Positions 1,571-39,101 of a DNA stretch of 41,684 nt are shown piece after piece. A program made the position numbers and the translations under genes. The stretch lies in IMG/VR virus record IMGVR_UViG_3300037313_001331; one strand, 5' to 3'. Under the pieces are notes generated by a model. The model searched no databases. It saw only the letters and a list, made by a program, of their open reading frames with translations, and was not told where the DNA came from. This DNA is from a virus (taxonomy: Duplodnaviria > Heunggongvirae > Uroviricota > Caudoviricetes). Positions within the stretch are counted from its first letter, which is position 1, and every line of letters begins with the position of its first letter.

Positions 1571-2062
1571 TCAGGTTTTGGATACAGCGCGCTCGGCCGC
1601 CAGGCGGCGTGCCATCTGCGCAGGGGTTTCGCCCGCTCGGGCAATGGGAATCACGGCCGGAGCCTTGGGTGTGGTGTTGACGACATCCGCGTAGCTGCCG
1701 GCGTCGCCCAGCGCATCGAGCGCGTCCCGCCGGCGTGCGGCCTTGGGCTTCTTGGGCGCGTCCCAAGTGCTCACCCAGCGCCGGGCCGCCTCCACGGCGC
1801 CGACGACTGCACCGCGGGCGACGAAGTACAGCGCCCGGCCGGCAGCGATCTCTTCGTCACGCATCTTTTCGGCGACGCACTGGCGGCACCCCAGTGCCGT
1901 GTTGCAGGGCGCCCAGTCCGCCGGCATCCGGGCGGAGCCCTTCACGACGCTGATGCGGTTCAGACAGGCCGCGTAGCTCATGCTCTGGCCGAGGGCAGTG
2001 CAGGAGAGGGTCAGCGCGTTCTTGCCAGATGCGCTGACATCGATTGTTTGTGTGTCAGTCAT
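1571..2062 (-). CDS. Cys-rich hypothetical protein (possible Zn-binding)
   Basis: Start moved to MTDTQ (AAGG RBS). Five Cys in the N-terminal half followed by KMRDEEIAAGRALYF. Resembles a conserved SSU5-type protein from recall. Confidence 0.65.
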   Translation of the reverse strand: MTDTQTIDVSASGKNALTLSCTALGQSMSYAACLNRISVVKGSARMPADWAPCNTALGCRQCVAEKMRDEEIAAGRALYFVARGAVVGAVEAARRWVSTWDAPKKPKAARRRDALDALGDAGSYADVVNTTPKAPAVIPIARAGETPAQMARRLAAERAVSKT

Positions 2063-2068
2063 GACTAA
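2051..2068. promoter_or_regulatory. 18-bp palindromic motif, copy 1 (TGTGTCAG-TC-ATGACTAA)
   Basis: Degenerate match to the consensus. Overlaps the start codon at 2062. Confidence 0.6.
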
Positions 2069-2072
2069 CCTT

Positions 2073-2567
2073 TCACCACGAACCGCGGCCCGGTTCAAGC
2101 AGCTCCATCAACTCGGCGTCGAGTTCATCGACGACCGTCGTCAACGGGATGGGTTCATCATCGGTGGGCGGGCTCGGCTCGTCATCGGACAGTGAAATGC
2201 CGGCGGCGATCAGGCCCATGGCCGAGAGGATTGCATGCGCGTGCGTCGCCCCGAAGTTCTCCTTCAGGTACCGCGCCAACATGTCCAGACCGCGCAGGTC
2301 CAGGTCCTTGCGGCCATGAAACCGATAGTCGCCCTTCGTCTTTGCAGCGATGGCCTCGTCATAGCCAACCCCCAGAACCTTGACATTGCCGCCCAGCACG
2401 GGGCGTGCGAACGCCTCGGTTCCGGAGAGCTTGCCGTAGTGGGCAACAACGACGCGCCGCCCAGCGGATGCACCCCCGGTGTCGACGCCCGCAATCTGGA
2501 AGACTTGATAGAAGGCGTTCCGACTCGTGGTGTTGGTCAGCCAGGATCGTTGGATGGAAAATTGCAT
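2073..2567 (-). CDS. WGR-like domain protein
   Basis: Start at MQFSIQ (AAGGGG RBS). The pattern AFYQVFQI...VVAHYGK...KTKGDY resembles the WGR domain, with YGK in place of WGR. Confidence 0.55.
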   Translation of the reverse strand: MQFSIQRSWLTNTTSRNAFYQVFQIAGVDTGGASAGRRVVVAHYGKLSGTEAFARPVLGGNVKVLGVGYDEAIAAKTKGDYRFHGRKDLDLRGLDMLARYLKENFGATHAHAILSAMGLIAAGISLSDDEPSPPTDDEPIPLTTVVDELDAELMELLEPGRGSW

Positions 2568-2628
2568 AGGTCCCCTTGGGGCAACAAAATCATTATTGGG
2601 AGTCTCGCTCTCCCATGTCGGATCTGGT

Positions 2629-3780
2629 CTACGCCCCTTCGGCTGCCCGCATGCGGGACGCTTCGGCAGCAAGGCGGATTGCGGTCAGTCGGTCAAGCGT
2701 CGTGGCCTGGAAAATCCACTGACGCACCAGCTCGGGCGGCACCGGTTCGTTGTCAGGCCCCTGCGCTGGGTCGTAGCCCATAGGGATGCGTGCAATGCGC
2801 ACGGTGAGCCCCAGCGCCAGCAGCTGCAGACCTGCCTTCACGGCCTCTGCCAGCGCCTTGCCCTCGCCGTCCCACATGATCGTGACGACGCGCAGCCCGC
2901 GCGTCTTCAGCTCGGCGAACTTCGCGATCTGCCCGTCCGGCCCGGCGCTGAGGTGCATGCCGAACGTCGCCACCGGCAGCATGCCCTCGCAGCTGGCGGC
3001 GCCCGTAATGGCCTGGTAGATGCCGATGGCGTCGAAGGCGCCCTCCCCCACCACGGCATGCGTGTGTCGCCCCTGCTCGAAGGTGTGACCGTTGTACAGG
3101 TGGCTTCCGGCCACCGCGTACCCCACGGGGAACATGTACTTCGGCTCCTGGGTGCCCGTGATGTCCCGACCCTGGAACGACACCAGCCGGCCGTCGAGAT
3201 CGGCGATAGGGATGATCACGCGCCGGTCGAAGTTCATCCACTTCTGGGTGCCGTCCGCCAGCTTGTAGCCCCACCAGCCGCCCTTGCAGAAGGACAGGTT
3301 GAACCACTGCGCCGTCTCGACGGTCACGCCACGGTTCTGCAGGTACGCCAGGTTGCGCCCATCCGGGGACGGGATGGGCTTCAGCTTGCTGGGCAGCTCC
3401 AGATCCGCCTTCACAAGCTCCACGCGCTCGCGCTTGGGCATCCAGCCCTGGTCTTCTGCCGTCGCTTTGATGTGCGCGTCCAGCTCGCCGCCCGACAGGC
3501 CGCTCACGGCCCGAATGAGCTTGAAGCGGTTGAACTTGAATCCGCACGCGCCGTGAAAGCAGTTGCCCAGCCCGGTCTCGGCGTTGATGTAGGTCTTGCG
3601 CCCACCTTCGCCACACACCGGGCACTCGTGCAGGTTCAGCTGCAGGCCGCGCGTCCCGTAGGACGGCGTGAAGTCGATGCCGGCACGCTCCAGGTAGTGC
3701 TCGACATCGATCTTGGCCAGGGCGCTGTCCAGCTCCTCGCGACGCGGATCAGCGCCGCGGGAACAGACGAACATCGTCAT
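2629..3780 (-). CDS. DNA primase (Zn finger plus TOPRIM)
   Basis: CPVC...CFHGAC zinc finger, RVIIPI, FQGR, TOPRIM motifs VGEGAFD and MWDGE. Confidence 0.85.
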   Translation of the reverse strand: MTMFVCSRGADPRREELDSALAKIDVEHYLERAGIDFTPSYGTRGLQLNLHECPVCGEGGRKTYINAETGLGNCFHGACGFKFNRFKLIRAVSGLSGGELDAHIKATAEDQGWMPKRERVELVKADLELPSKLKPIPSPDGRNLAYLQNRGVTVETAQWFNLSFCKGGWWGYKLADGTQKWMNFDRRVIIPIADLDGRLVSFQGRDITGTQEPKYMFPVGYAVAGSHLYNGHTFEQGRHTHAVVGEGAFDAIGIYQAITGAASCEGMLPVATFGMHLSAGPDGQIAKFAELKTRGLRVVTIMWDGEGKALAEAVKAGLQLLALGLTVRIARIPMGYDPAQGPDNEPVPPELVRQWIFQATTLDRLTAIRLAAEASRMRAAEGA

Positions 3781-3782
3781 GA

Positions 3783-4103
3783 TCAGCGGCTCTTCAACAG
3801 CCCCAGGGCGATCTGCTCTTCACGTGAGAGCTTCGCCAACGCCTTGAGCTTCAGCTCCTCCCGCGCCTTCTTCTCTTTCTGGTCGAGGTCGACAGGATCA
3901 GGGTGCTTCAGAACGTAGACATCGGCGCCGAGGGTGATGGCCAGCTCCTTCGCCACCCTGCCCGGGCCGCCGTACCAGCCCTTGCCCTTCGAGTGCTGTT
4001 CAGCGACAGATGCGTGCGAGAAGTATCCGACCAACTCGTCAGGTGCACGGCGGTCGTCCCCGCCGCCGTACACCGCATAGATCTCCAGAAAACCAGCGTC
4101 CAT
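3783..4103 (-). CDS. Hypothetical protein
   Basis: 106-aa ORF coupled to dnaB (TGATG overlap) and filling the gap to the primase. Confidence 0.65.
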   Translation of the reverse strand: MDAGFLEIYAVYGGGDDRRAPDELVGYFSHASVAEQHSKGKGWYGGPGRVAKELAITLGADVYVLKHPDPVDLDQKEKKAREELKLKALAKLSREEQIALGLLKSR

Positions 4104-5458: not shown

Positions 5459-5461
5459 GAA

Positions 5462-5779
5462 TCAGCTCCCCTTGTGCAGAATCACCGATTCGATGCCGTG
5501 CTTGTAGTAGATGCCTTCGAGGCCCATGAACTCGCCCTCGTCGTGGCGCAGCGTCACCGTGAACTTGTCACGGCGCACGATCACACCGCGCACATCGTCA
5601 CTGTTCATCAGGCGCAGCGTGACGGGCGTCGCGTTCATCTGCGCATGCTCCAGGTCACGGTCGTGGCCCTTCGCGACGAACGGCTTCTTCGCAGGCCGCT
5701 GCACGCGGCCAGCCTCGTATTGCGGTGCAACCACGGGGCGGTTCAGATGGGTGATGTTCGACGGAATGGTGTCGCTCAC
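5462..5779 (-). CDS. hfq: Hfq-like Sm-fold RNA-binding protein
   Basis: Start moved to GTG at 5779 (AGGAG RBS). AKG..PVTLRLMNSDDVRGVIVRRDKFTVTL..IYYKHGIESV aligns by eye with Hfq Sm1/Sm2 (AKG..[36 protein letters not shown]). Confidence 0.75.
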   Translation of the reverse strand: MSDTIPSNITHLNRPVVAPQYEAGRVQRPAKKPFVAKGHDRDLEHAQMNATPVTLRLMNSDDVRGVIVRRDKFTVTLRHDEGEFMGLEGIYYKHGIESVILHKGS

Positions 5780-5828
5780 AAAGACTCCTGGATGATGAAA
5801 ATCGGGCAAGTCGCCCGGTGACCGCTTC

Positions 5829-5834
5829 ATTATA
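5829..5834 (-). promoter_or_regulatory. Sigma70-type -10 hexamer TATAAT upstream of the hfq-like/dnaB genes
   Basis: Perfect TATAAT on the minus strand, 5 bp downstream of palindrome copy 2, which occupies the spacer and -35 position. Confidence 0.5.
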
Positions 5835-5839
5835 GGTAC

Positions 5840-5857
5840 TCAGTCAGTGCTGACTGA
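5840..5857. promoter_or_regulatory. 18-bp palindromic motif, copy 2 (TCAGTCAG-TG-CTGACTGA)
   Basis: Perfect 8-bp arms, intergenic. Confidence 0.85.
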
Positions 5858-5858
5858 T

Positions 5859-6542
5859 TCATCCAAGCCGGGAAGCGGCTGCTTCTGCGAGCGCGGCCAC
5901 TTCTGCGCCCCATGCAGACTCCGCGAACGCGGCAGAAAAGTAGCCCTCCTTCAGCATGCGACCGATCAGGCCGGGGCGGGCGTGCGGCACCCGGGCGTCG
6001 ATCTGCATGCGGATGTACTCGCGGTGTCGAGCGACTGCCGGCGTCTCGGGAGCGCCAGGCCTGAACTGCTCGGCCTGGCTGAATTGCAGCTGGCGCTCGA
6101 ATCGCTCCTGCCACGCGTCGTTCACATCCAGCTCGAACTCTTCGCCGTACAGCTGGTTGGGTCGCGGGAAGCGGCGGAAGTAGCGCTCCAACGATCTGCG
6201 GGCGGCGAAGTCGAGCACGAACGGATAGGGCAGCCCCATTCGGTCTGCCGCCTGCCGGGCGAGCCACATCGAGGTCATGTCGCGGCTCGCGAAGATGTCG
6301 TCGGGACTGAATGCCCTGGCGTCCTCCGCGCTGCGCATGTCGATGCATCGCTCGTAGTACGCCCGGGTTGCCTCCACATAGTGGTGCGCGTAGCAGTAGG
6401 TGGCCGTCACCGGGTGCATGTGCTGGTAGTCGAACCACCTCAACTCAGTCAGGCTCGCCTCGATCTCGCGGTGCGCGGGGTCGATCCGGAGCCCTCGCAC
6501 CTCCAGGTCAACCGCACTCAAGTCATCGCCGTAGAACCTCAT
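5859..6542 (-). CDS. Conserved phage hypothetical protein
   Basis: 227 aa. The motifs RWFDYQHMHP, MWLARQAADR and FPRPNQL resemble an SSU5-type core protein from recall. Confidence 0.7.
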   Translation of the reverse strand: MRFYGDDLSAVDLEVRGLRIDPAHREIEASLTELRWFDYQHMHPVTATYCYAHHYVEATRAYYERCIDMRSAEDARAFSPDDIFASRDMTSMWLARQAADRMGLPYPFVLDFAARRSLERYFRRFPRPNQLYGEEFELDVNDAWQERFERQLQFSQAEQFRPGAPETPAVARHREYIRMQIDARVPHARPGLIGRMLKEGYFSAAFAESAWGAEVAALAEAAASRLG

Positions 6543-6631
6543 TCGCCATCGCCCCTTTTAAGTTGTTCTCTTCCCTTTCACTGTAGGGAGTGATTAAACC
6601 TAGGGACCAGCAGAAATCGCTAATTCCCGCC

Positions 6632-7401: not shown

Positions 7402-7419
7402 TGACTCAGTGCTGACTGA
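7402..7419. promoter_or_regulatory. 18-bp palindromic motif, copy 3 (TGACTCAG-TG-CTGACTGA)
   Basis: Lies in the divergent gap between phoH and the PEP-CTERM gene. Confidence 0.8.
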
Positions 7420-7531
7420 CTATCTCATTTTTTTCAGGCACACGCACGACCCGTTCGCAAGCCCCTCCCCCTCAAGTGAGGGGCCTCATCGTCTCGCGCA
7501 AGCGCTAGGCTCGCGACTTTTGGGAGACAAC

Positions 7532-8137
7532 ATGCGCACACTTTTTGTGGCCGCCATCGTCGCGGCAAGCGGAGCCGTGAACGCGGCCGACATCAGCATC
7601 GCCGTCAGCAACGTTCAGACCGCGCTGGTTGACCTAGCTCCGGCCGACGGCATTGACCCTACTCTCTCGTTACCTTTAGGCGACCTTGCAGCCTTCGCAA
7701 CGGGCTTCAGCACCCTCGACACGTCTATGCCTGTGTTCTCGCTTCTGGGCTCGATTGGGGCCCATTCCGAGGCGCGTGTGGGGTTCGACTTCAGCTTGTC
7801 GCTGACTGTGCCAAACAACGAAGACGCGTATGCGATTTTTCGACTCGACTCCGCCTGTCTGGGGTCGTGCAAATACCCGGGCTGGGTGGGGTTAAACACT
7901 GGCCTGCTGCCTGACACGGTCGGCCCGGGATTCACCACGCGCACTCGGGACTATCACGCCGAGCTGGTGCTGACGAACGACCTCGACACCGATGGCGCCT
8001 TCAGCGTGATGTACACCCACTACTTCTTCATGGAGAAAGGCTCCGTACCGTCGCCGGTGCCGGAGCCTTCCACCTACCTGCTGATGGCAGCCGGCTTGGC
8101 CGCCATCTCTTTCGTCAGACGAAGCAGCCGATGCTAG
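7532..8137 (+). CDS. PEP-CTERM sorting-domain (exosortase substrate) surface protein
   Basis: Start moved to MRTLFVAAIVAASGAVNA (signal peptide, GGGAGA RBS). C-terminus VPEPSTYLLMAAGLAAISFVRRSSRC gives PEP, a TM helix and a basic tail. Confidence 0.9.
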   Translation: MRTLFVAAIVAASGAVNAADISIAVSNVQTALVDLAPADGIDPTLSLPLGDLAAFATGFSTLDTSMPVFSLLGSIGAHSEARVGFDFSLSLTVPNNEDAYAIFRLDSACLGSCKYPGWVGLNTGLLPDTVGPGFTTRTRDYHAELVLTNDLDTDGAFSVMYTHYFFMEKGSVPSPVPEPSTYLLMAAGLAAISFVRRSSRC

Positions 8138-10448
8138 GCGGCGACGACTGCACAACGTCCTCGAAGTCCGTCGAGAAGGCCGTGGCCAGGCCCACGCCGG
8201 TGCCAGCTGCCTTCAGCGGAGACCCGATCTGCGGCCGGTAGTTGCCGCCGGCGAAGTCCACCAGGTTCGCCGCGCCCTGCCCGCCACCGGCGTTCTGGCC
8301 GGTGGCAGAGTTCAGCGTCGAGTGCGAGTAGTTCACCGCGCCAGCTGCGTTGCCGTTCGGCTCCCAGCGGATCGGGTTGGGGTTCACGGTGTCGAACCAG
8401 TTGTTCTTCATCGTGAGCTGCCCACTGTCGAACCCCGCTTTCTTGAGGAAGACGTACGAACCGGAAACGCCGCCCTTGAACAGGTTGTTGCTGAGATTCA
8501 CGTTGGACATGTTGTCTCCCAGCTGGAGGTAGCCTGAAGAGCCACTCAGCGGGAAGATGAACGTGTTGTTGTGGATGTTCAGCCCGTTCGTCAAGGTGTC
8601 CAAGGTGTCGCCGAGACGACGCCCCTGGAACGTCACGTAGGACGTGCAGTTGACCACCAGGTTGTTGTAGATCCAGTTGTCGACGCCGCACGAGATGTCG
8701 AACGGTTGACCGTTGCCGGCTGCCCAGTAGCCCATCTCCACGATCTTGTTGTGATGCGCGTACATGCGGGTGAAGTTCTCGGCCGTTGCGCTGTAGCCGT
8801 CGTTCCACCCGATGCCGTCGCAGCACCGGTACATGAAGTTGTAGGAGATGTCGCAGTCCGTGACGTTGCCGCCATGGATGATCAGCGCGTGATTGCCCTT
8901 GTTCGGACCTGTCTGGTAGCAGTAGTTGAGCTTGAAGACGAAGTGATCCAGGTCATTGACGTAGACGTTGTGCGAGAACGTCATGTCGCGGCCGTTGTCC
9001 CAGAACGTCGACTTGATGATCCGGATGTACGAGCCCGTGCCATCCACACCCGCGCCGGCCCCGCCCCACGTGCAGCAGTCGTGCACCTCGCAGCCGATGA
9101 TGTCGACCGGGAAGTTGTAGCCTGCAGTGCCGCGAACGAATCCGCCGTAGCCGATCTGGATGCCGTTGCCCGTCGAGCCACGCATCTCGCAGTACATGTA
9201 CTTGACATCGCCGCGGCGGCTGCTGAGGCCGGTCAGCGGGGTCACACGGCGCGAGCCGCCGGTGTTGCCGATCACACCGGAGCCACCGTTGTTCGTCGTG
9301 AACGTTTCGCTGTTCACGAAGTCGGCCGCGGTGCCCACCTTGAGCACGTCAAACGACAGTCCGCTCGGGTGCTTCCAGATCACCTGGAACTGCGCCGCGG
9401 TGGTCGTGTCGCCGGTCATGATGTCGCCGACGTTGACGCCGGTCGAACTCGCGATGGCAACCTGCCAGGCCTGGATCTGGTCAAAGGCGATGGTGCACAG
9501 CCGGGTGCCGCCTTCCCAACCCATGAAACAGTAGGCGTCCGTGGTCGCCATCGTGTTGCCGTAGTTGTTGCGGTAGCGCACCAGCGGGCGGGGGCCCGAC
9601 CCGTACGAGCCGAAGAAGATGCGGCCGTGTCCGGTGCCGCCGCTGTTGGGATCGGTCCAGCCGGTCTTCGTCAGCTGAGCGCGCAGAGCGCCGTCCCACT
9701 CGCCGCCGCGCTTGAGCAGCACGACGCTGTACACGTCCAGACCGACGCCGGGGAATGCACCGTAGGTCTTGGGACGCAGCTCATTGAGCGTGGAGAAGGG
9801 GCTGGCCTTCGCCGTTGCCGGGTTGGTCGACGCAACGCCGGTGCCGGGCGTGGCAGCCGGGTCCACGTAGACGAACTGCGAGCACGGCCACCAGTAGTTG
9901 ACGTTCGAGACCGGATTGCCGACGTTGAAGTCGATGTCGGAGATGTAGTAGTTGCCGCCGGAGGTGACGACATCGCCGAACTTGTAGATCGTCCCTGCGC
10001 TGTAGGGGACGGCATCGACGGTGGGGTCCTGCGTGCGCGAGCCCGCATCTGTCGGAGCGCCGTACCCCAGCGCCATGGTGTAGTCGTTGCCGGATGAGCC
10101 GACACCGCCGCCACCTGCAGACGCCACGATGACAGAGCCGGTGTAGATGGGGCCCAGTGAGCCCGCGCCGTTCGTGTAGATCGTGCCGCGACGCACAGCA
10201 TGCGTCACGTCGGCTCCCGCCGGCGTGTAGGCAGCGCTGGTCGCCCCGGAGATGTCCGCGCCGTCACGCTGCCACTGGTAGGTGGGGGTGATCGTGGGCG
10301 AGCCGTAGACATACGGCGCCTCGACCACCGTCAGGGCCACGCCCTCGGTGGCCGCACCCGACAGGGTAGGACCACCGAGGGGGAGGCGCGGGGCCTCCGA
10401 CGTGGGCTTCCGCTTGCCGCGGTTGAAGTGACCAGCGACGCCCAGCAT
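8115..10448 (-). CDS. Right-handed beta-helix protein with N-terminal Ig-like and CBM-like segments (putative depolymerase/tailspike)
   Basis: 777 aa. Ig-like TYQWQRDGADISGATSAAYT; CBM5/12-like YSAGTIYKFGDVVTSGGNYY; repeated parallel beta-helix turns rich in N, G and C (e.g. IIGCEVHDC, FKLNYCY, ISYNFMY, IYNNLVV, IHNNTFI). Confidence 0.72.
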   Translation of the reverse strand: MLGVAGHFNRGKRKPTSEAPRLPLGGPTLSGAATEGVALTVVEAPYVYGSPTITPTYQWQRDGADISGATSAAYTPAGADVTHAVRRGTIYTNGAGSLGPIYTGSVIVASAGGGGVGSSGNDYTMALGYGAPTDAGSRTQDPTVDAVPYSAGTIYKFGDVVTSGGNYYISDIDFNVGNPVSNVNYWWPCSQFVYVDPAATPGTGVASTNPATAKASPFSTLNELRPKTYGAFPGVGLDVYSVVLLKRGGEWDGALRAQLTKTGWTDPNSGGTGHGRIFFGSYGSGPRPLVRYRNNYGNTMATTDAYCFMGWEGGTRLCTIAFDQIQAWQVAIASSTGVNVGDIMTGDTTTAAQFQVIWKHPSGLSFDVLKVGTAADFVNSETFTTNNGGSGVIGNTGGSRRVTPLTGLSSRRGDVKYMYCEMRGSTGNGIQIGYGGFVRGTAGYNFPVDIIGCEVHDCCTWGGAGAGVDGTGSYIRIIKSTFWDNGRDMTFSHNVYVNDLDHFVFKLNYCYQTGPNKGNHALIIHGGNVTDCDISYNFMYRCCDGIGWNDGYSATAENFTRMYAHHNKIVEMGYWAAGNGQPFDISCGVDNWIYNNLVVNCTSYVTFQGRRLGDTLDTLTNGLNIHNNTFIFPLSGSSGYLQLGDNMSNVNLSNNLFKGGVSGSYVFLKKAGFDSGQLTMKNNWFDTVNPNPIRWEPNGNAAGAVNYSHSTLNSATGQNAGGGQGAANLVDFAGGNYRPQIGSPLKAAGTGVGLATAFSTDFEDVVQSSPPSIGCFV

Positions 10449-12337
10449 TACGCGATCCCCGTGAGCGCGCCGCCGAACAGGCCGGTCGACTGCAGCACCG
10501 GCGCCACCGGCGTGGTCGCGCCGTTGTTGCAGCGGAAGAGCAGCGGGTAGATCTGCGCGCCGATGTCGGGCAGCTTGCCGCCGGTGTTGACCGTGCCGCC
10601 CGCGCCGTCATTGGTGAGCGTCACGAACGCAACGCTGTTGGCCGTGCGGTTGTAGAGCCACATCTCGGCCTTGCGGTTGGCGCCAGGCGTGTACTTCAGC
10701 TGGAAGTCGTACACCGTGGCAGCCGCGTCGTTGGCCGGCGCCGGGTTGCCCTCGAAGCCCGCGCCCAGGCTGGTGCCCAGGAAGGCGGCATTGGCGGTCG
10801 CACTGTTCGCAATCGGCCGGTAGTACTGGTCGGTCGCGTCGGTGTAGAAGCCCAGGCAGTTCGTCAGGTACTGGCTCGGGATGAGCGTGTTGCTGAGCGA
10901 GGCGCCCTGCTGCCAGCTGATGCCGATGAAGTTGCGGCCACCGTTGGTGCCGCTCCAGGTTTGGCCATCGGTGATGGCGAACACGCAGCGGAACTTGTAG
11001 ACGGGCTCGGTTGCACCGGTGCCGCCGATGTAGCCGGTCTGCACGCCCGGCCGCCATGCGATGTAGTCGGTCGCGGCAGCAGCCGTGAACTTCAGGCGGT
11101 GGTAGTAGCCGAGACCGCCCAGGGACGACGTGCTCGGCGCGCTCAGGGTCGGGGCGCTGGTGCCCACCGGAGCGGTGTTCAGCATCATGAACCCGGTCAT
11201 CGTCGTCGAGCCGGGGTACTGCGGGTAGATGCCGAAGTTGCCGTAGCCGCTGGTGAAGTCGGGCAAGCCGCCACCGCCGCCACCACCTGACGCGGCGATG
11301 CTCACCGTCTGCGTGCCGGAGTTCGGCGTCAGCGTGACGTTGGCGCCCTGCTGCAGGATGGCGGCGACGCGGGCATAGACCGCAGCGTTGAAGTCTGAGA
11401 TGGCAGCTGCCTGAAGGGTGCCCAGCTGGCCAGCGACCACGTAGACGTTGGTCTGCTCCATGATGATGGAGCCCAGCGCCTTGGCGCCGCTGGAGGACAG
11501 CTGGCCGTCGATGCTGGAAACGCCCGAGGTACCGTCACCTTGGAACGTGACGTTGCCGCCCGACATGGCGACCGAGTGGAACCAATCGCACCAGAAGCCT
11601 GCGGACAGACCCACCGGGATCGTCACCGTGCAACCGCCCGTGTTCGTGAAACGCAGCAGCCAGGAGCAGTCGGCGTCCAGGATCGTGTAGGTCGCCGCCG
11701 AAATGGACTTGATGCCCTTGTACTTGTCGGCCTTTGTGGCAAAGGTCGCAGCCAGCGCCGCGGCGTCGGAATAGCCCAGGGCCGTCGGTGCTGCGGCGGT
11801 GCCGCCCAACGCGCCGGCGAGGCGCACGTTGCCGTTCACCGAGGACGTGGCGTCCTGCTCGGTGTTGTCGATCTTGTCCCAGCTGGAGCCGTTCGAGACG
11901 ATCCAGTCGCCGACTTGCCAATCGGTGATGCCGTTGACGTTGGTCGCGCCGGCAACGCTGACCTTGTAGTACTGGCCCTTGTTGCCGGTGGCAGCGACCG
12001 GGATGGTCGGGGTGTTGGTCGAGGCGTTCCAGGTGCCCTGGTATGCCATGGCACCGGTGATCGAGGACGGCAGTTGGCCGGCCGGCACCTTGCCGTCGTT
12101 TCCGAGCGTGGCAACACCGTTGGCCGCACCCTTGTCGGTCGCGGGAATCGCGCCGACATCGGCCGCCGTGGGCATTGCGTGAACGTGGTCCTCGTGCGAG
12201 GCCGCGACGGCAACGCCGGCAGCGGCGACACCGAGAGGGCTCGGGGTGGCGGTGCCCGTCGCGGCGCCGCCACCACCTCCACCACCGCCACCCGAGGAGG
12301 GAGCGGTGCCTGCGTACTTGGTCAGACTGGTCGTCAT
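10448..12337 (-). CDS. Tail fibre / virion appendage-like protein
   Basis: 629 aa, Gly/Ala/Thr-rich. Fibre-type motifs HVHAMPTAADVGA, GAANGVATLGNDGKVPAGQLP and YQGTWNASTNTP...GDWIVSNG. Coupled to the next gene (TAATG). Confidence 0.68.
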   Translation of the reverse strand: MTTSLTKYAGTAPSSGGGGGGGGGAATGTATPSPLGVAAAGVAVAASHEDHVHAMPTAADVGAIPATDKGAANGVATLGNDGKVPAGQLPSSITGAMAYQGTWNASTNTPTIPVAATGNKGQYYKVSVAGATNVNGITDWQVGDWIVSNGSSWDKIDNTEQDATSSVNGNVRLAGALGGTAAAPTALGYSDAAALAATFATKADKYKGIKSISAATYTILDADCSWLLRFTNTGGCTVTIPVGLSAGFWCDWFHSVAMSGGNVTFQGDGTSGVSSIDGQLSSSGAKALGSIIMEQTNVYVVAGQLGTLQAAAISDFNAAVYARVAAILQQGANVTLTPNSGTQTVSIAASGGGGGGGLPDFTSGYGNFGIYPQYPGSTTMTGFMMLNTAPVGTSAPTLSAPSTSSLGGLGYYHRLKFTAAAATDYIAWRPGVQTGYIGGTGATEPVYKFRCVFAITDGQTWSGTNGGRNFIGISWQQGASLSNTLIPSQYLTNCLGFYTDATDQYYRPIANSATANAAFLGTSLGAGFEGNPAPANDAAATVYDFQLKYTPGANRKAEMWLYNRTANSVAFVTLTNDGAGGTVNTGGKLPDIGAQIYPLLFRCNNGATTPVAPVLQSTGLFGGALTGIA

Positions 12338-12352: not shown

Positions 12353-12370
12353 TGTGTCAGTACTGACTCA
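12353..12370. promoter_or_regulatory. 18-bp palindromic motif, copy 4 (TGTGTCAG-TA-CTGACTCA)
   Basis: Intergenic, abutting the RBS of the 629-aa gene. Confidence 0.85.
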
Positions 12371-12375: not shown

Positions 12376-12693
12376 TTAGATGGACATGATGGCCGAGACT
12401 TTGGTGGCGCTGCCCGTGGTGCTCACGAGTTCAGCCCGGAAGAACTCCCACTTCCAATAGATCTCCTCCGCCTCGCTGGGCGTGCCGTTGCTGATGTCGA
12501 ACGTGCCGATCAGGTGCGGGAAGCGGGGGTCGTTGGCGCCATAGACCTTGACCTGCGCGGTCCAGGTGCCAGAGTTCGAGGAGCCGGCGACCTGAACGGA
12601 GCGCTTGCCGTTGGTCTCGGCGGAATCGCCGGCTCCCTTCCATTCACCAAAGCCGAGATTGGTCTGGTCCAGGAGCAGCTGCAATTGGGACAT
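12376..12693 (-). CDS. Small hypothetical (possibly virion-associated) protein, 105 aa
   Basis: Start moved to MSQLQLLL (GGGAGA RBS). Beta-strand-like pattern. Confidence 0.62.
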   Translation of the reverse strand: MSQLQLLLDQTNLGFGEWKGAGDSAETNGKRSVQVAGSSNSGTWTAQVKVYGANDPRFPHLIGTFDISNGTPSEAEEIYWKWEFFRAELVSTTGSATKVSAIMSI

Positions 12694-12729: not shown

Positions 12730-12747
12730 TGTGTCAGCGCTGACTGA
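12730..12747. promoter_or_regulatory. 18-bp palindromic motif, copy 5 (TGTGTCAG-CG-CTGACTGA)
   Basis: Intergenic, 4 bp beyond the phosphoesterase stop codon. Confidence 0.85.
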
Positions 12748-12751: not shown

Positions 12752-13990
12752 TCAAGGCAACGGACGTGCCTGCGGCAGCGCGATGCGCGTCTCCGGGGTG
12801 ACCATCTCATCGGGCTGGCGGGTGTACCAGACGCCACCGGACACAGCGAAGTCGGTGACCGGCACGTAGTCGAAGTTGACCTGGCGCGTCTGGGTGTCGC
12901 TGTTCGCAATCATGAAGCCCATGTGCCACTTCTCACCCGAGCAGTAGCTGGCGTCCCGGCGGTGTCCGCAGCCCAGCTGGTGCCACTCGAAGGCGCCGTA
13001 GACCGGACTGAAGTCGGGCCAGCTGATGTGCTTGTGGTGGTGCCCATTCACGCCCGGCAAGCCCATGCGACGCCCCTCGGGGAAATGGTGCACCAGCAGG
13101 CAGTCGTCGTAGATGATGTAGTTGCGGCCCAGCTCCTTGGTGATGTCGCGCTCACGGTAGGCGGCCAGGTCAGCCTTGGCGTGGTAGTTCACCTCGAACC
13201 GGTCCAGGCCGAACAGCTGGCGAATGGTCATCCCGTGCAGCTCCGCCAGCACGACCTTCAGGGCGGGCGTCTCGTCACTCAGGTGACGCAGCATGCGGAA
13301 CTCGTGGTTGCCTTCGAGGTAGTCGAACTGGGCGTCCGGGATCACCTCGCGCACATCAGCGCAGAAGCGGTGCATCTCGCGGATGCGTCGGGTTGGGTTC
13401 CATTCGCGCGGGTCGACCGAGTACTTGCCGAACTCAGGCAGGTCCATGCCGTCGCCACCGATGCAAAAGGCATCCGGCTGCACCCGGCGCACGGTGTCGA
13501 TGAGCACGCGGCGGAAGAACGGATCCATCTCCTCGTCGTGCAGGTCCGAGCAGATGATGACCGTCTTGAAGCGCTTGTTGTTCGGGCGCAGGTACTTGTC
13601 GCCGTAGTTCGCCCGCTCCTCGTTCGCCTTGCGGTAGTGGTCGACCGACGCATGCTTGGCGATGGCGCGCTCCAGCGCGTGCTGCTGGCGGGTCAGCTTC
13701 AGCCCGGCCTGGCGCTTGAACTCCTCGAAAGTGCCAAAGTACTGGTTCCACGCCGACTCGGCGTAGGTGCCGTTGACGCGGTAGAAGTTGCGGCTGATGG
13801 CCAGGTCGGGATGCCTTTCAGCCAGATCGCGCAGATCCTTCACCACCTGGGCCTTGGTCGCCGTCTTTACCTTGGGGATCAGCGTCTCCGACATCGGCTC
13901 CGGGCGGTGCACCAGGCCGTAGTGGGGGATCTTCTGCTTTTCTTCCTTGACGGGCTTGGCCGCCTTCGCGGCGACGGTCTTCTTGGTCAT
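12752..13990 (-). CDS. Calcineurin-like metallophosphoesterase with N-terminal putative nucleic-acid-binding repeat
   Basis: Metal motifs SDLH, GGDGMD, EGNHE and GHHH in canonical order. The N-terminal YRVNGTYAESAWNQYFGTFEEFKRQAGL resembles the homing-endonuclease-associated repeat. Confidence 0.83.
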   Translation of the reverse strand: MTKKTVAAKAAKPVKEEKQKIPHYGLVHRPEPMSETLIPKVKTATKAQVVKDLRDLAERHPDLAISRNFYRVNGTYAESAWNQYFGTFEEFKRQAGLKLTRQQHALERAIAKHASVDHYRKANEERANYGDKYLRPNNKRFKTVIICSDLHDEEMDPFFRRVLIDTVRRVQPDAFCIGGDGMDLPEFGKYSVDPREWNPTRRIREMHRFCADVREVIPDAQFDYLEGNHEFRMLRHLSDETPALKVVLAELHGMTIRQLFGLDRFEVNYHAKADLAAYRERDITKELGRNYIIYDDCLLVHHFPEGRRMGLPGVNGHHHKHISWPDFSPVYGAFEWHQLGCGHRRDASYCSGEKWHMGFMIANSDTQTRQVNFDYVPVTDFAVSGGVWYTRQPDEMVTPETRIALPQARPLP

Positions 13991-15305: not shown

Positions 15306-15719
15306 TTACTTGATCAGCGGGGAGTTGGGGAGGTGATTCAGGAGCCAGACGACTCCGCCGCCGCAGGCGGCAATCACGGCCCACATCACGCGGGCCAGCC
15401 AGGTGGCTGTGGAGATGCGCGCCTTGTTGCGCTCGCCGTCGATGTGCATCTCCTTGACCACGTCTTCCACCGCAGCCAAACGGCTGGAGAAGCTCGCGTT
15501 GGAGGCCTTGTCGATGTCGGCCTGGTGCTGTCGCTCCTCGATGCGCTCGATGCGCTCCAGGATCTTGTTCGTCGTGTTGGTCAGCGTGGCCTGCCGGTCG
15601 CCCAGCACGGCCAACTGATTGATGCCGTCTGCCACCTTGGCGAGAACGATCTTCATTTCGTTCACGTCATTGCGCAGGTGGAAGAGCTCTCCGCTGTCAA
15701 CGCGGCTTTCCGATCCCAT
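15306..15719 (-). CDS. Coiled-coil protein with C-terminal TM (holin/antiholin-like)
   Basis: Heptad-rich N-terminal part, hydrophobic C-terminus WLARVMWAVIAACGGGVVWLL, first gene of the lysis block. Confidence 0.55.
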   Translation of the reverse strand: MGSESRVDSGELFHLRNDVNEMKIVLAKVADGINQLAVLGDRQATLTNTTNKILERIERIEERQHQADIDKASNASFSSRLAAVEDVVKEMHIDGERNKARISTATWLARVMWAVIAACGGGVVWLLNHLPNSPLIK

Positions 15720-15752: not shown

Positions 15753-15770
15753 TCAGTCAGTGCTGACTGA
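15753..15770. promoter_or_regulatory. 18-bp palindromic motif, copy 6 (TCAGTCAG-TG-CTGACTGA), with minus-strand TATAAT at 15775-15770 overlapping its edge
   Basis: Intergenic, upstream of the lysis cassette. Confidence 0.85.
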
Positions 15771-25023: not shown

Positions 25024-25041
25024 TCAGTCAGTGCTGACTGA
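25024..25041. promoter_or_regulatory. 18-bp palindromic motif, copy 7 (TCAGTCAG-TG-CTGACTGA)
   Basis: Intergenic, directly after the distal-tail gene stop. The flanks extend the symmetry (AA...TT). Confidence 0.85.
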
Positions 25042-25410
25042 TTATGCCTGCTCAAGAGAGAACGAACAATCCCAACGCTTGGAGCTGCCGATGCCGACGT
25101 ACTTGAACTGCAACGGATCCTTAAACCGCACCGTGTAGATCGCGCCATCGGCCGGGTTGGTCCAGTCGAAAGTGAGCGAGCCACCCTTGGTGGTGTTCCA
25201 GAAGTTGCCCAGCGTGGTCCGGTCGGCGTCCGTCAGCATCTGATAGGCAATCGGCCAGGTCCGCCGCGGCGCGCGGGTGTGCTTCGGGCGGGTGATGACG
25301 TATCCACCCTCCATCTCCGTGCGCATCGCCGGGTCTTCCAGCTGGATGCCGAACTGCTTGGAGTCGGGCAGGCTGCCACTGGGCAGGGTCGGGTATACGA
25401 GTGCTGCCAC
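25042..25410 (-). CDS. Distal tail protein (M-like)
   Basis: 122 aa directly after the tape measure gene. GGSLTFDWTNP and YTVRF motifs. Confidence 0.75.
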   Translation of the reverse strand: MAALVYPTLPSGSLPDSKQFGIQLEDPAMRTEMEGGYVITRPKHTRAPRRTWPIAYQMLTDADRTTLGNFWNTTKGGSLTFDWTNPADGAIYTVRFKDPLQFKYVGIGSSKRWDCSFSLEQA

Positions 25411-29801: not shown

Positions 29802-29821
29802 GGGTCTCCTCCTGTGGAAAC

Positions 29822-29837
29822 GGGGCTCTGCGGCCCC
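29822..29837 (-). terminator. Weak hairpin GGGGC-CGCAGA-GCCCC followed by GTTT, after the tail tube gene
   Basis: 5-bp GC stem with a short U tract. Confidence 0.35.
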
Positions 29838-29852
29838 ATGGTTGTAGAAACG

Positions 29853-29870
29853 TGGGTCAGTGATGACCCA
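29853..29870. promoter_or_regulatory. 18-bp palindromic motif, copy 8 (TGGGTCAG-TG-ATGACCCA)
   Basis: Intergenic. Extends to the perfect 10-bp IR ACGTGGGTCA-N4-TGACCCACGT (29850-29873). Confidence 0.75.
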
Positions 29871-29879
29871 CGTCCCAGG

Positions 29880-30768: not shown

Positions 30769-30786
30769 TCAGTCAGTGGTGACTGA
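30769..30786. promoter_or_regulatory. 18-bp palindromic motif, copy 9 (TCAGTCAG-TG-GTGACTGA)
   Basis: Intergenic, upstream of the tail tube gene. Confidence 0.85.
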
Positions 30787-33429: not shown

Positions 33430-33456
33430 AAAAACAGGGGCGTGGCGCCCCTGTTT
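33430..33456 (-). terminator. Intrinsic terminator after the major capsid gene
   Basis: AAACAGGGGCG-CCA-CGCCCCTGTTT 11-bp stem ending in a T5 run. Confidence 0.8.
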
Positions 33457-33457: not shown

Positions 33458-33475
33458 TTAGTCACCACTGACCCA
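33458..33475. promoter_or_regulatory. 18-bp palindromic motif, copy 10 (TTAGTCAC-CA-CTGACCCA)
   Basis: Sits between the capsid stop codon and the terminator. Confidence 0.75.
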
Positions 33476-34383: not shown

Positions 34384-34409
34384 CTTTTTCTCCTTATTGT
34401 CTGCCTGCG

Positions 34410-34427
34410 TGTGTCAGTACTGACTGA
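34410..34427. promoter_or_regulatory. 18-bp palindromic motif, copy 11 (TGTGTCAG-TA-CTGACTGA)
   Basis: Intergenic between the scaffold and capsid genes. Confidence 0.85.
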
Positions 34428-34429
34428 GT

Positions 34430-35338
34430 TTATACGCGGGCCGTTTGCTTGCCAAGTGCCTTGAGCCCGGAAGCGATCTTCTCGATGGAAGTCTTGGACT
34501 TCCCACCGGTATCGCCACCAGCCTGGCGGGCACCCTTGTTGTTGGTATTGCTGCCGGAACCGGGGCGCACCTTGGAACGAATCAGGTGGTCCTTGTCCGG
34601 GTCGGCCTCGACGAGCTTGCGGAGCGCTTCGTCGAACGACAGCACGTTGCCAGCGGCATCGACCAGCTTGGTGCGTTCGCTTGCACCAGCGGGCTTGTCG
34701 AAACCGACGACCTTGCCATCGACGAACTCGAAGTGCGAGCCGTAGACCACTCGGGCCTTTGCCGGCGTCAGCGTGAGGTCCTCAGCCACGAACTTGGAAC
34801 CGGTGAAGGCGCTGCCCACCGTCATGTCCGCAATCTGCTGGCTCAGCGTCTTGGCCGCGGCCTTCGCGGCTTCGATCTGCTGCTCCAGGGCACTCTTCTC
34901 GGCCGTGTGGCGTTCGCCCATCTGTTTCACCAGACGGTCGTATTCGCCACGCGCTTCGAGTCGCTTGTTCTCGGCTTCTTCTTGCTCCTTCAGGAGCGCG
35001 CGAATCTTGACCGGATCGATCCCCTCGAAGTCCTTGAGGCGAGCTTGCGCTTCGGCAGCTGCCTTCTCAGCCTTCTCGGCCTTCTCCTTCTGCTTCATCA
35101 CGTCCTTCAGCAGCGCCGCTTCCTTGTCGGACAGCGCGCTTCGGGCAGCTTCTGCCTCAGCTGCGGCCTTGTCGGCAGCCGCTTTGTCAGCTGCAGCTTT
35201 GTCAGCAGCGGCCTTCTCGGCTGCGGCTTTCGCTGCAGCGTCGTCACCACCACCTCCGCCACCGCCAGAGCCCTCGGTGCCGTCATTGGCAGGGCCCATC
35301 AGCTTGTGAAGATGCATCAGTCGTTGAATACGGGTCAT
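34430..35338 (-). CDS. Capsid scaffolding protein
   Basis: Charged coiled coil with KAAA(D/E) repeats, located between portal and capsid. Confidence 0.78.
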   Translation of the reverse strand: MTRIQRLMHLHKLMGPANDGTEGSGGGGGGGDDAAAKAAAEKAAADKAAADKAAADKAAAEAEAARSALSDKEAALLKDVMKQKEKAEKAEKAAAEAQARLKDFEGIDPVKIRALLKEQEEAENKRLEARGEYDRLVKQMGERHTAEKSALEQQIEAAKAAAKTLSQQIADMTVGSAFTGSKFVAEDLTLTPAKARVVYGSHFEFVDGKVVGFDKPAGASERTKLVDAAGNVLSFDEALRKLVEADPDKDHLIRSKVRPGSGSNTNNKGARQAGGDTGGKSKTSIEKIASGLKALGKQTARV

Positions 35339-35408
35339 TTTTCTTTCCTACGGCCAGTCGCTCGGCCTGGGTTGGTCATGTGCGGGCGCGGTCTCTTGGC
35401 CCACTCTT

Positions 35409-36944: not shown

Positions 36945-36971
36945 TGTTCTTATAGGCAGACGTGCGGATTA

Positions 36972-36989
36972 TGTGTCAGTACTGACTGA
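36972..36989. promoter_or_regulatory. 18-bp palindromic motif, copy 12 (TGTGTCAG-TA-CTGACTGA)
   Basis: Intergenic between terL and portal. Confidence 0.85.
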
Positions 36990-36998
36990 TTCGCAAGG

Positions 36999-38339
36999 TC
37001 AAATGGACACACCCAGGACCTCGACCTTCCGGACCGGGAACTCGAACTCGATGCAGTAGCCTGCGGCGTCGGCCGCGTGCTCCACGCCGGCGCTCTTGTC
37101 CACGTCGCGGGTGCCGGGCACGTACAGGGTCTGTTCCAGGGCCTCGATCAGCTTCTTGCACCGCGGATCCACGTACATGCGAATGTCGCCATTGGCGGCC
37201 TTCAGCATGCGGTTCACGGCGTTCACGCGGTCGGCCACCTTCGGGTGCTTGCGGCGGTACTTCTGCTTCTTGAAGCCGCGGGCGCGAAAGATGTCCAGGT
37301 CCGACTCGCCGCGGCCCTTGGTTGAACCGTAGGCGCCGGCCGGGTCGGGATAGATCACGATCTGGTCGATGAACCGCCAGTAGCGACGCTCCAGCTCATC
37401 GCACAGCTCGTCCGTGTTCGACGCCGGCAGGCAGATCTCGTCGATGGCCCACAGCTCGCCATTGCGCTGCTTCTGGAACACCACCGAGGACATCGGGTCG
37501 ATGTTGAAGTCCTGACCGATCCAAATCGGCAGGTTCGGGTTGAATGCGAGCGGCTTCACGTGGACCTTGCGGTCGAACGTGTAGTACACCCGGCCGCTCA
37601 TGGTCTCGAACGAGGCCTCGAACTCCTGCTTGAACGACTTCTCGTCCATGTCGGCGCGGGCTGCCTCGATCTCGTGCTCGGGGATGAACGGCGACGTGAT
37701 CGTCGGGAACTGCCAGCTCTCCCAGGCGACCTTGTCCTCCTTCTGTCCGGTGGCCCACAGCTCGTAGAGGAAGTTGTACGCCTTGGGGGTGCCGATGAAC
37801 AGCGCGTGACCGCCGGTCGACGCGAGCGTCGGGCGCAGCACCTTCGTCCAGGCATCGGGGTCGATGTCCTGCACCTCGTCCATGACGAGGTAGTGGATGC
37901 CCACGCCCCGCAGCGAGTCGGGGTTGTCCGCGCCCTTCAGCTCGATCTTCGAGCCATTGACCAGCGTGATCGTTAGGATCGTCTCGTTGTACTTGCGCAC
38001 CCAGCGCCGCGGGATCGCCTCCACCAGCTCGGGCCACATGATCTGCTTGGCCATGCGGTAGCTCGGCGCCACGTACCAAATGAGGCGCTTGGGCACGCGA
38101 GCGAACTTGATCAAGCACACCTTCGCCAGCTGGGACTTGCCCCAGCGGCGGCCGGCGACCACGACCTTGAATCGCTTCTTGCTCGCGTACACCGCCATCT
38201 GCTTGGCGTGCAGGAACAGCGTGTTGCGCGGCGGCCGGAACGCCTCGCGGATCTCGTCGGAGGCAGTCGCGAGCGCGCTCGACACCGCGCCCGGGGTCAC
38301 CACGGGCTCGACAGTGCCCAGGCCGAGATCGAGGGACAC
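36999..38339 (-). CDS. Terminase large subunit
   Basis: Walker A VVAGRRWGKS, Walker B LVMDE, IGTPK, nuclease IGQDFN...HAADAAGY. Confidence 0.94.
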   Translation of the reverse strand: MSLDLGLGTVEPVVTPGAVSSALATASDEIREAFRPPRNTLFLHAKQMAVYASKKRFKVVVAGRRWGKSQLAKVCLIKFARVPKRLIWYVAPSYRMAKQIMWPELVEAIPRRWVRKYNETILTITLVNGSKIELKGADNPDSLRGVGIHYLVMDEVQDIDPDAWTKVLRPTLASTGGHALFIGTPKAYNFLYELWATGQKEDKVAWESWQFPTITSPFIPEHEIEAARADMDEKSFKQEFEASFETMSGRVYYTFDRKVHVKPLAFNPNLPIWIGQDFNIDPMSSVVFQKQRNGELWAIDEICLPASNTDELCDELERRYWRFIDQIVIYPDPAGAYGSTKGRGESDLDIFRARGFKKQKYRRKHPKVADRVNAVNRMLKAANGDIRMYVDPRCKKLIEALEQTLYVPGTRDVDKSAGVEHAADAAGYCIEFEFPVRKVEVLGVSI

Positions 38340-38984
38340 TTACACCCCCTCCTCGTCGAGCATGCCAGGATCGGCATCGAGCGCGAGCGAATCGTCGCTC
38401 TGGTCGCGCAGTTCGTTCACCTCGCCCTGCGTCAGCTCGCGCACGGTCAGCTCGGGCAGCTCCTCCATGTCCTTGTTCTTGTCGGCCTCTTCGACGCTCA
38501 GCAGGTCGTACAGCTCCTTCCGGGACGTGCCGATGATCTCGCCCGCCAGCTTCAGGGTCTGCATCGTCTCCTTCAGGCCGGCCAGGTCGAGACCGGCCTG
38601 ACGCGCACGGACGATCTCGGCCCACGCCAGCTTGGCGATGCCCGAACTCATCTTGAAGTACTCGTCCTTGGTGGCGGCGATCTTGGCCAGGTGCTCCTCG
38701 ACGCTCGACAGCGCCCGTGCCTCCGCCTTCTCGGCCATCTTCTTGGCAATCTCGGCCGCGGCCTCGCCCTTCTTGGCGCCCACCTTCTTGAACAGCCGGG
38801 AAAACGTCTCGGGCCGCTTCTTGAACTTCTTGGCCAGGTCCTCAAGGGTGCACTCGCCCGCGCGCCACATGGCGACGGCTTCGGCCTTCTGGGTGACGGT
38901 CAGCCCCTTCGAGCCGGGCTTGCGTCCACCGCGGGAACCTGGGGGCTTGGTCTTGGGGTCCGCGACAGCGGCTGGCGTGCTCAT
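38340..38984 (-). CDS. Putative terminase small subunit (N-terminal HTH)
   Basis: LTVTQKAEAVAMWRAGECTLEDLAKKF HTH. Directly abuts terL. Confidence 0.68.
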   Translation of the reverse strand: MSTPAAVADPKTKPPGSRGGRKPGSKGLTVTQKAEAVAMWRAGECTLEDLAKKFKKRPETFSRLFKKVGAKKGEAAAEIAKKMAEKAEARALSSVEEHLAKIAATKDEYFKMSSGIAKLAWAEIVRARQAGLDLAGLKETMQTLKLAGEIIGTSRKELYDLLSVEEADKNKDMEELPELTVRELTQGEVNELRDQSDDSLALDADPGMLDEEGV

Positions 38985-38995
38985 GCGTCCTCCCC

Positions 38996-39022
38996 AAAAA
39001 GGTGGCGGGCACCAGGCCCGCC
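38996..39022 (-). terminator. Intrinsic terminator-like hairpin just upstream of the terS RBS
   Basis: GGCGGGC-CTGGT-GCCCGCC-ACC-TTTTT on the minus strand. Confidence 0.55.
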
Positions 39023-39083
39023 GGTTTGGAGGACTTCACTTCGCAGGAGCAGGTTGGATTCTCCCCGCCCGGGGCCCAAAGAG

Positions 39084-39101
39084 TCAATCAGCGCTGACTT
39101 A
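39084..39101. promoter_or_regulatory. 18-bp palindromic motif, copy 13 (TCAATCAG-CG-CTGACTTA)
   Basis: In the noncoding leader of the packaging genes. Confidence 0.75.

Follow-up and report, generated by a model that had tools for sequence, protein, structure and literature searches.

What purpose is served by an 18-bp palindrome that recurs at gene junctions across much of a tailed phage genome, and what protein reads it? The question is raised by 41,684 nucleotides of viral DNA (the window; IMG/VR record IMGVR_UViG_3300037313_001331, Caudoviricetes), in which 13 copies of the palindrome lie between positions 2051 and 39101. An earlier note, made from the letters of the window alone, proposed that these copies form either a master operator or a dispersed centromere. 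The reading favored here, to which we assign a probability of roughly 60 per cent, is that the palindrome is the predicted operator of one phage-encoded dimeric helix-turn-helix (HTH) regulator, probably a 151-aa protein of the Cro/C1 type, which would silence the element as a plasmid prophage. A symmetric site that recurs in all gene modules, is specific to the element, and lies on promoters fits a dimeric regulator of a plasmid-prophage, and the master-operator half of the proposal is in this respect sustained.

The pattern TNNNTCANNNNTGACNNA has exactly 13 matches in the window, starting at 2051, 5840, 7402, 12353, 12730, 15753, 25024, 29853, 30769, 33458, 34410, 36972, and 39084, and all of the copies claimed by the earlier note are found where it had placed them; 11 of the 13 match on both strands, and 100 dinucleotide shuffles produced a mean of 0.15 and a maximum of 2 matches. 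A position weight matrix (PWM) built from the window genome and its relative G002 scores the 13 copies at 14–31 bits, while no other window position reaches 10 bits and shuffled windows yield 0–1 matches. The window has a G+C content of 64 per cent and is ∼94 per cent coding, in agreement with the description of a genome almost wholly given to genes, and the PWM scan finds zero copies in its coding DNA. Twelve copies are wholly intergenic and the remaining one (2051) carries the ATG of the next gene at palindrome positions 7–9 (Joint Genome Institute (JGI) gene call, locus L062 6430), which bears out the count of 12 copies in gaps and 1 over a start codon.

Since 39 of the 42 called open reading frames (ORFs) lie on the minus strand, the palindromes must be read on that strand, where the order is a stop codon, 0–9 nt in most copies, the palindrome, usually 9–35 nt, and then a ribosome-binding site and ATG; the distance from stop codon to palindrome is 37–169 nt at copies 15753, 30769, and 39084. 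The dyad has a 7-N4-7 layout with half-site centers 11 bp apart. Its consensus is T(C/A)AGTCA-N4-TGACT(G/T)A, in which T1, A3/G4, TCA, and the bases that mirror them are conserved, while the 4 bp at the center are free to vary. The invariance of T1, A18, and TCA-N4-TGAC reported for all 13 copies is correct, but two other details of the consensus that accompanied it are not, as position 4 is C in 7402 and A in 39084 instead of G, and the pyrimidine–purine center fails in 2051.

The window belongs to a 110,897-bp phage contig assembled from soil and rhizosphere metagenomes, and only 2025 soil and rhizosphere DNA runs contain its sequence. A megablast of 15 kb against the phage collection gave no match and a distant-mode search was needed; the head genes are 67–71 per cent identical to those of siphophages of ∼110–120 kb, namely Rhizobium RHph_N1_10, RHEph10, and V1VFA-S, Pseudomonas nickie, and Klebsiella SSU5-like phages. 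The element is a relative of the RHEph10/pLM21S1-type phage-plasmids, with the SSU5 type more distant. RHEph10 is akin to pLM21S1, a plasmid-prophage with a RepC replicon (PMC5537653), and V1VFA-S carries parA, parB, and repC (PMC12509600). G002, a complete IMG/VR genome of 117,697 bp, is collinear with the window at 66–72 per cent DNA identity and holds 41 palindrome copies. Two of these (G002 56194 and 57168, L009) have longer flanks in common (aaaaag before, CAATGCGAAC after) and lie in 2.8 kb of DNA poor in ORFs, a possible origin or control region. The isolate Massilia sp. TN1-12 (6.3 Mb) has a further relative, a contig of 112,962 bp (NZ_JBJCIU010000006.1) that resembles a complete phage-plasmid of this group.

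The palindrome is a property of the element. Where a relative sits alongside a sequenced host chromosome, in Massilia sp. TN1-12, 18 of the 19 strict AGTCA-N4-TGACT sites fall on the 113-kb phage-like contig and only 1 in the other 6.2 Mb. Position is conserved as well, in that the window, G002, Massilia, and RHph_N1_10 share palindromes at the TerL/portal junction, before the capsid gene, between the capsid stop codon and its terminator, and both before and after the major tail gene. Within a constant 7-N4-7 geometry the half-site shifts by lineage: AGTCA in the window genome, G002, and Massilia; AATCA (as AATCA-N4-TGATT) in RHEph10 and RHph_N1_10; AGTAA in V1VFA-S, which has 30 perfect copies of TAAGTAA-N4-TTACTTA; and GTAAGT/ACTTAC in Klebsiella pJN2-26 and Escherichia Cyrano. 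The suggestion in the earlier note of a similar AT-rich palindrome in SSU5-type genomes is roughly right, in that pJN2-26 and Cyrano hold an AT-rich palindrome and an orthologous regulator, but the palindrome is a different one, and AAGTCA-N4-TGAC is not enriched in pJN2-26, Cyrano, or ST13-OXA48phi12.3. A second dyad, AAACA-N3-TGTTT, occurs 14 times in pJN2-26 (L043–L048). Neither nickie nor BUCTxx99 has a recurrent palindrome above the level of shuffles; TCA-N4-TGA appeared at first sight to be 6-fold enriched in nickie, but this is a codon artefact, the matches lying in coding DNA without common flanks.

The copies also coincide with promoters. Between 24000 and 41684 there are four sigma-70-like sites, all on the gene strand and all overlapping copies (30769, 34410, 36972, and 39084). 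A separate promoter scorer was applied to the copies of three genomes, with random relocation and flank shuffling as nulls. Promoter-like matches overlap 6 of 19 copies in this genome (0.18 expected under relocation, 0.49 under flank shuffling), 6 of 41 in G002 (0.16 and 0.40), and 12 of 30 in Massilia (0.29 and 0.81), and antisense promoter-like matches are few, at 1–2 per genome. Palindrome offsets cluster at −22 and at −1 to +3 relative to the −10 box. At −22 the palindrome takes up the spacer together with the first 2 nt of the −10, a register that prevails in Massilia and is seen here at 36972 and 12730. At −1 to +3 the first palindrome base is the last of the −10 or lies no more than 3 nt beyond it, as at 15753, 25024, 30769, and 34410 and in the early promoters of G002 (CTGAAA-17-TATAAC, 3 nt, palindrome). 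In a third register, that of 39084, the downstream arm forms the −35. These registers are positions at which a bound protein blocks polymerase. Most promoter-associated copies in Massilia end in a TA that opens a TATAAT.

The same coincidence could mean that the site is a positive promoter element, bound by an activator or by a partner of a phage sigma factor, that is needed for lytic firing and acts as a timing signal. Copies stand on early and late module promoters alike, many of the −35 boxes are weak, and relatives encode a sigma-70-family factor beside CobS (EVB77_081 in RHph_N1_10), all of which an activator would accommodate. However, the register to the −10 varies (−22, −1 to +3, and −38/−44) and mostly places the palindrome over the spacer or start site, where proteins block polymerase; the MerR-type exception to this rule requires spacers of 19–20 bp and those here are 16–18 bp. 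Moreover, some copies are promoter-free and lie beside terminators, and elements read by sigma factors are asymmetric whereas the palindrome is a dyad. An activating role is thus a minor possibility, if a real one.

If the palindrome is instead an operator, there is reason to think that its binder is encoded just outside the window, where the earlier note had allowed for a repressor. Locus L062, which shares 8,491 identical nt with the window and reaches 5.9 kb past coordinate 1, encodes a 151-aa HTH protein on the minus strand at 10396–10851, ∼2.3 kb beyond that coordinate. The 382-bp divergent gap next to the gene holds three palindromes, and beyond it lie a 63-aa gene, cobT, and cobS; a strict sigma-70 scan of this control region gave 0 matches. 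A word-index protein search with the candidate returned only the query itself. Comparison of ORF sets indicates that an HTH protein of ∼148 aa, a ParA, and a ribbon–helix–helix (RHH) protein are common to the palindrome-bearing genomes and absent from nickie. The 151-aa protein is 31–37 per cent identical to its orthologues in G002, Massilia, RHEph10, V1VFA-S, and pJN2-26, and others are present in RHph_N1_10, X66 (annotated XRE), B1VFA, and Cyrano (annotated putative repressor). The gene is always beside a repC or integrase gene and at the start of a cobT–cobS early operon. All eight genomes with an HTH orthologue have a recurrent palindrome, nickie and BUCTxx99 are without both, and in six of the seven other genomes at least one palindrome copy lies within 700 bp of the HTH gene.

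In its modeled N-terminal fold the candidate resembles known repressors. Its family comprises 2,277 clusters at E ≤ 0.001, and 60 of 100 members match Pfam HTH_3. The AlphaFold2 (AF2) model has a predicted local distance difference test (pLDDT) score of 93.8 (a model from a three-sequence alignment reached 60.6 and was not used), and its N-terminal 60 residues resemble P22 c2 (root-mean-square deviation 1.9 Å), 434 Cro, lambda cI, and SinR (Foldseek probability 0.99–1.0, E 0.01–0.09), and also C-proteins, while a PDB profile search returned an ‘Immunity repressor protein’ (8bny, E 0.0024). A homodimer modeled through the C-terminal helices scored 0.55 against 0.00 for the best control, with a partner pLDDT of at least 82 and contact agreement of at least 95 per cent between runs; in a benchmark of this score that value was attained by 21 of 30 proteins whose solved structures are same-chain pairs and by none of 23 whose structures are single chains. 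The model supports self-binding, although the pass may partly reflect likeness to solved dimers of this fold. The recognition helix begins GYERPN in the two genomes that share TCAGTCA, whose proteins are ∼35 per cent identical, and begins differently in each genome with another half-site (NK, TQ, SN, and KN), a correspondence that is no more than suggestive. An S24 peptidase domain is absent from the protein, and induction by RecA-driven self-cleavage is therefore unlikely, which would fit the observation that pLM21S1 is not induced by mitomycin C (PMC5537653).

Two proteins within the window that had been put forward as binders are poor candidates. The winged HTH protein (39271–39669, minus strand, PHROG 900) has positional homologues upstream of TerS both in Massilia and in palindrome-free nickie and is a conserved core gene product, and the TerS-like HTH protein likewise has a BLAST match in nickie; neither gave an informative Pfam match. 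Among the plus-strand and divergent-junction proteins of G002, Pfam identified no regulator.

The palindrome might also be an operator read by another protein of the plasmid/lysogeny module, such as the RHH partner of ParA, the 63-aa product, or RepC. A ParA and an RHH_10 protein are found in G002 and RHph_N1_10 and are absent from nickie, and the 63-aa gene occupies the position of a cro gene. RHH proteins, however, usually read short tandem subsites, and two 7-bp half-sites 11 bp apart with a free center are typical of HTH dimers. In addition, BLAST found no match to the RHH protein in Massilia, which has the palindrome, and the 63-aa protein is without a family match in Pfam or PHROG. A different binder from this module is consequently unlikely.

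A role in RNA, with the palindrome as a hairpin that serves as an RNase III/E processing site, an mRNA end stabilizer, or an intercistronic terminator element, has some features in its favor: perfect copies fold at −7.7 kcal/mol, copies lie 0–9 nt after stop codons, two precede terminators, and the flanks of that at 29853 lengthen it to an 11-bp stem ahead of UUUCU. Conservation is nonetheless of the wrong kind. At the variable arm positions (2/17, 3/16, 4/15, and 8/11) complementarity within each genome is no higher than independence predicts (p 0.2–1.0), giving no sign of compensatory pairing, and five ACACA-type copies fold at only ∼−3 kcal/mol, no better than shuffles (z −0.2 to −0.75). 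As the arms vary independently and these copies fold no better than shuffles, it is the base sequence itself and not merely its pairing that is conserved, which fits two half-sites read independently. For copies that start at the −10, moreover, the predicted transcription start falls inside the palindrome and the transcript would be without the left arm. An RNA role is therefore quite unlikely.

The other half of the earlier proposal, in which the dispersed palindromes would be loading sites for a ParB_N protein that links partition with silencing in the manner of KorB, has not fared as well. RK2 KorB has 12 dispersed operators, and KorB/KorA of RK2 and the dispersed centromeres of N15 offer precedents for palindromic sites scattered over a plasmid-like replicon; two ParB_N proteins are in fact encoded just beyond the window (L061 5335–6006 and 6969–7604). 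Yet a ParB_N homologue (36 per cent identity) is retained in nickie, which has no palindrome, so that the occurrence of these proteins does not follow that of the sites. Unlike parS or OB sites, the palindrome has a free 4-bp center, the neighbor of ParA in G002 is an RHH protein and not a ParB, and the sites track core promoters. A partition role is accordingly very unlikely. That the palindrome belongs to the host, as a transcription factor site or a REP-like repeat, is barely credible, given its near confinement to the phage-like contig in Massilia and the difference in half-site between phages of one host genus (AATCA in RHEph10, AGTAA in V1VFA-S).

Several observations nevertheless weigh against a repressor operator read by the 151-aa protein. 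Nickie and BUCTxx99 are without the whole plasmid/lysogeny module (ParA, the RHH partner, and RepC), and the presence/absence correlation is therefore not independent; because the module is absent as a unit, any DNA-binding protein within it fits the pattern equally. By itself the 151-aa protein has no Pfam or PHROG match, its assignment coming from family members and fold. Massilia and G002 share the AGTCA core yet their recognition helices start with NK and ER, respectively. Six or seven of the 13 window copies are without a convincing sigma-70-like promoter (33458, 29853, 12353, 5840, and 2051 among them), and two of these (33458 and 29853) precede terminators. There is also an orientation bias that is unexplained, with CACA/ACAC on or just after the downstream arm at 10 sites in this genome versus 3 mirrored. 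Finally, a prophage repressor might plausibly hold late structural genes silent; in P1 this is achieved indirectly. With regard to the bias, the downstream arm often reads TGACACA (copies 2051, 12353, 12730, 34410, and 36972, and L062 8564 and 13990); elsewhere the count is 11 versus 5 in G002, where a CACAC run follows the palindrome, and Massilia shows none.

Two regulatory systems with dispersed sites may inform the interpretation. The C1 repressor of P1 has 22 operators, asymmetric 17-mers, dispersed over the plasmid-prophage (PMC8546580), and the likeness lies in one repressor site scattered over a phage-plasmid of ∼100 kb and serving many transcription units. The dispersal seen here is comparable to that regulon (13 copies in 41.7 kb, 41 in G002, and at least 18 on the Massilia contig). 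P1 operators, however, are asymmetric, whereas the palindrome is a dyad and its candidate reader a Cro/C1-type HTH protein predicted to be a dimer, and P1 controls its late genes indirectly via Lpa, whereas copies here stand directly at head and tail promoters. The repressors of cluster A mycobacteriophages bind operators and stoperators at more than 20 sites per genome (PMC9283540, PMC6550527). As here, the sites are in promoters and short intergenic gaps, and related phages have shifted specificities that fit heteroimmunity. Stoperators, on the other hand, are asymmetric 13-mers bound by a monomer in an orientation-dependent manner, while the present core is palindromic with only a mild CACA bias, and a block to elongation at its promoter-free copies is conjecture. 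As the sites of both systems are asymmetric, the palindrome system is a member of neither.

The repressors and Cro proteins of P22, 434, and lambda provide a closer structural parallel. The operators of P22 and 434 have a center that is not contacted. The likeness extends to the same HTH fold, a dyad operator of two half-sites, and several operators in a divergent control region beside a small gene in the cro position (PDB 3jxb, 2cro, and 1lmb). In those phages a handful of operators lie at OL and OR, as opposed to ∼35–40 genome-wide here, and the candidate differs in having no S24 peptidase domain and a C-terminal helical dimer domain with no solved match. By its modeled fold and dyad operator, the system belongs with the Cro/C1-type repressor–operator systems.

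Under the repressor-operator reading, each monomer would read one 7-bp half-site and leave the central 4 bp unread, at ∼35–40 copies over the 111-kb phage-plasmid, 13 of them in the window. The bound protein would exclude RNA polymerase by filling the −35/−10 spacer, covering the start site, or covering the −35, and would thereby keep the genes for replication, lysis, tail, head, and packaging silent together for as long as the element is maintained as a plasmid prophage. Promoter-free copies by terminators (33458 and 29853) could serve as roadblocks or looping partners, and the divergently encoded 63-aa product might be a Cro-like competitor. A more tentative extension, which we consider possible but doubtful, is that Gram-negative phage-plasmids have a palindromic counterpart of the stoperator, in which a dimeric Xre-type repressor occludes ∼20 promoters, blocks elongation or loops DNA at terminator-side copies, and, through its half-sites (AGTCA, AATCA, AGTAA, and GTAAGT) and matched changes in the recognition helix, constitutes an immunity code across the supergroup from RHEph10/pLM21S1 to SSU5.

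The individual copies are described here in the order in which the minus strand is read. Upstream of the TerS-like gene, the copy at 39084..39101 (26.8 bits) contributes its downstream arm as the −35 of TTGACT-18-GAGAAT (39087 to 39058, minus strand). In the TerL/portal gap, 36972..36989 lies over a promoter-like TTGCGA-17-CATAAT (36996 to 36968, minus strand), taking up its spacer and the first 2 nt of its −10; copies at this junction elsewhere are G002 43104, Massilia 27692, and RHph_N1_10 L013 23649. Between the scaffold-like and major capsid genes, 34410..34427 begins at the last −10 base of TTGGCA-17-TAAACT (34455 to 34427, minus strand), and syntenic copies precede the capsid gene at G002 40163 (TTGGAG-18-TAGAAT), Massilia 30326, and RHph_N1_10 L013 20915/20977. 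The DUF6651 scaffold-like gene (34430–35338) contains 15-bp and 30-bp tandem repeats at 35144–35230. The copy at 33458..33475, for which no promoter is recognizable, lies 5 nt past the major capsid stop codon and 2 nt ahead of an intrinsic terminator (33433..33455, minus strand) with a 10-bp GC-rich stem, a 3-nt loop, and a U run. A 61-nt fold there has −24.8 kcal/mol (z −2.84) and extends the terminator stem to 33455; the terminator scan missed this terminator, probably because the stem runs into the U run. The layout of stop codon, palindrome, and terminator recurs at G002 39196 and RHph_N1_10 L013 19954.

Upstream of the major tail gene, 30769..30786 starts at the last −10 base of TTGCCA-18-TAGAAT (30815 to 30786, minus strand; 10 of 12 promoter matches), and its syntenic counterparts are G002 35393/35430, Massilia 34639, and RHph_N1_10 L013 13740/13788. 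The copy 9 nt past the stop codon of that gene, 29853..29870, has the lowest PWM score of the 13 (14.0 bits); its flanks are complementary and form an 11-bp stem (29849–29874) before the UUUCU, with a second GC hairpin at 29820–29839. Alone among the copies it looks adapted to form a hairpin, and it may be an operator that doubles as a terminator hairpin. At 25024..25041 the palindrome abuts the stop codon of gene 25042–25410, and CATAAT (25046–25041) ends on its first base, with a weak −35 (TTGTTC) across a 17-nt spacer. The copy at 15753..15770 stands ahead of gene 15306–15719 and the M15 peptidase (lysis) genes, and a perfect TATAAT (15775–15770) ends on its first base, overlapping T1. This hexamer is one of two pointed out previously, both of which are present on the minus strand; the other (5834–5829) follows copy 5840 at a distance of 5 nt and shares bases with a possible ATG.

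Four nucleotides past the stop codon of gene 12752–13990, the copy at 12730..12747 precedes a 105-aa ORF (12376–12693, minus strand) and occupies the spacer of TTGACG-18-CACAAT (12755 to 12726, minus strand). That at 12353..12370 separates this ORF from gene 10448–12337, 15 nt before the ATG, and a weak −10-like CATAAG overlaps its downstream end. The ORF has no Pfam or PHROG match and, being bracketed by the two copies, would be a separately controlled single-gene unit. The copy at 7402..7419 is in the divergent gap between a plus-strand PEP-CTERM gene and a PhoH-like gene, and a −10-like GATAGT in the PhoH direction ends on its first base. The plus-strand gene (7409–8137) is the only one on that strand in this part of the window, and its JGI product of 201 aa has a weak match to the PEP-CTERM/exosortase signal (PF07589). 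The copy at 5840..5857, 1 nt past the stop codon of gene 5859–6542, precedes the Hfq-like and DnaB genes and has no convincing −35 to accompany its downstream TATAAT. The Hfq-like product is a 122-aa ORF (5462–5830, minus strand; PF17209, E 2e-7) directly upstream of DnaB, although its start is uncertain (105-aa versus 122-aa calls in different assemblies). The copy at 2051..2068, which contains a start codon, lies in a 10-nt gap and scores 18.3 bits. Beyond the right end of the window, between the two ParB_N genes, L061 6364–6588 encodes a 74-aa product with an Acb2/Tad1 hairpin domain (PF24729), which may act as a sponge that takes up signaling molecules of host defence.

The phage-plasmids of ∼110 kb that make up the RHEph10/pLM21S1, AB, and SSU5/pHCM2 groups occur widely, both among soil bacteria and among clinical Enterobacteria. 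A literature search found no account of lysis–lysogeny control in these three groups and no description of these palindromes; the control proposed here is most likely of a known kind. Together, the operator and the candidate repressor predict which transcription units are silent in the plasmid state, and the operator variants predict immunity relations among related phages.

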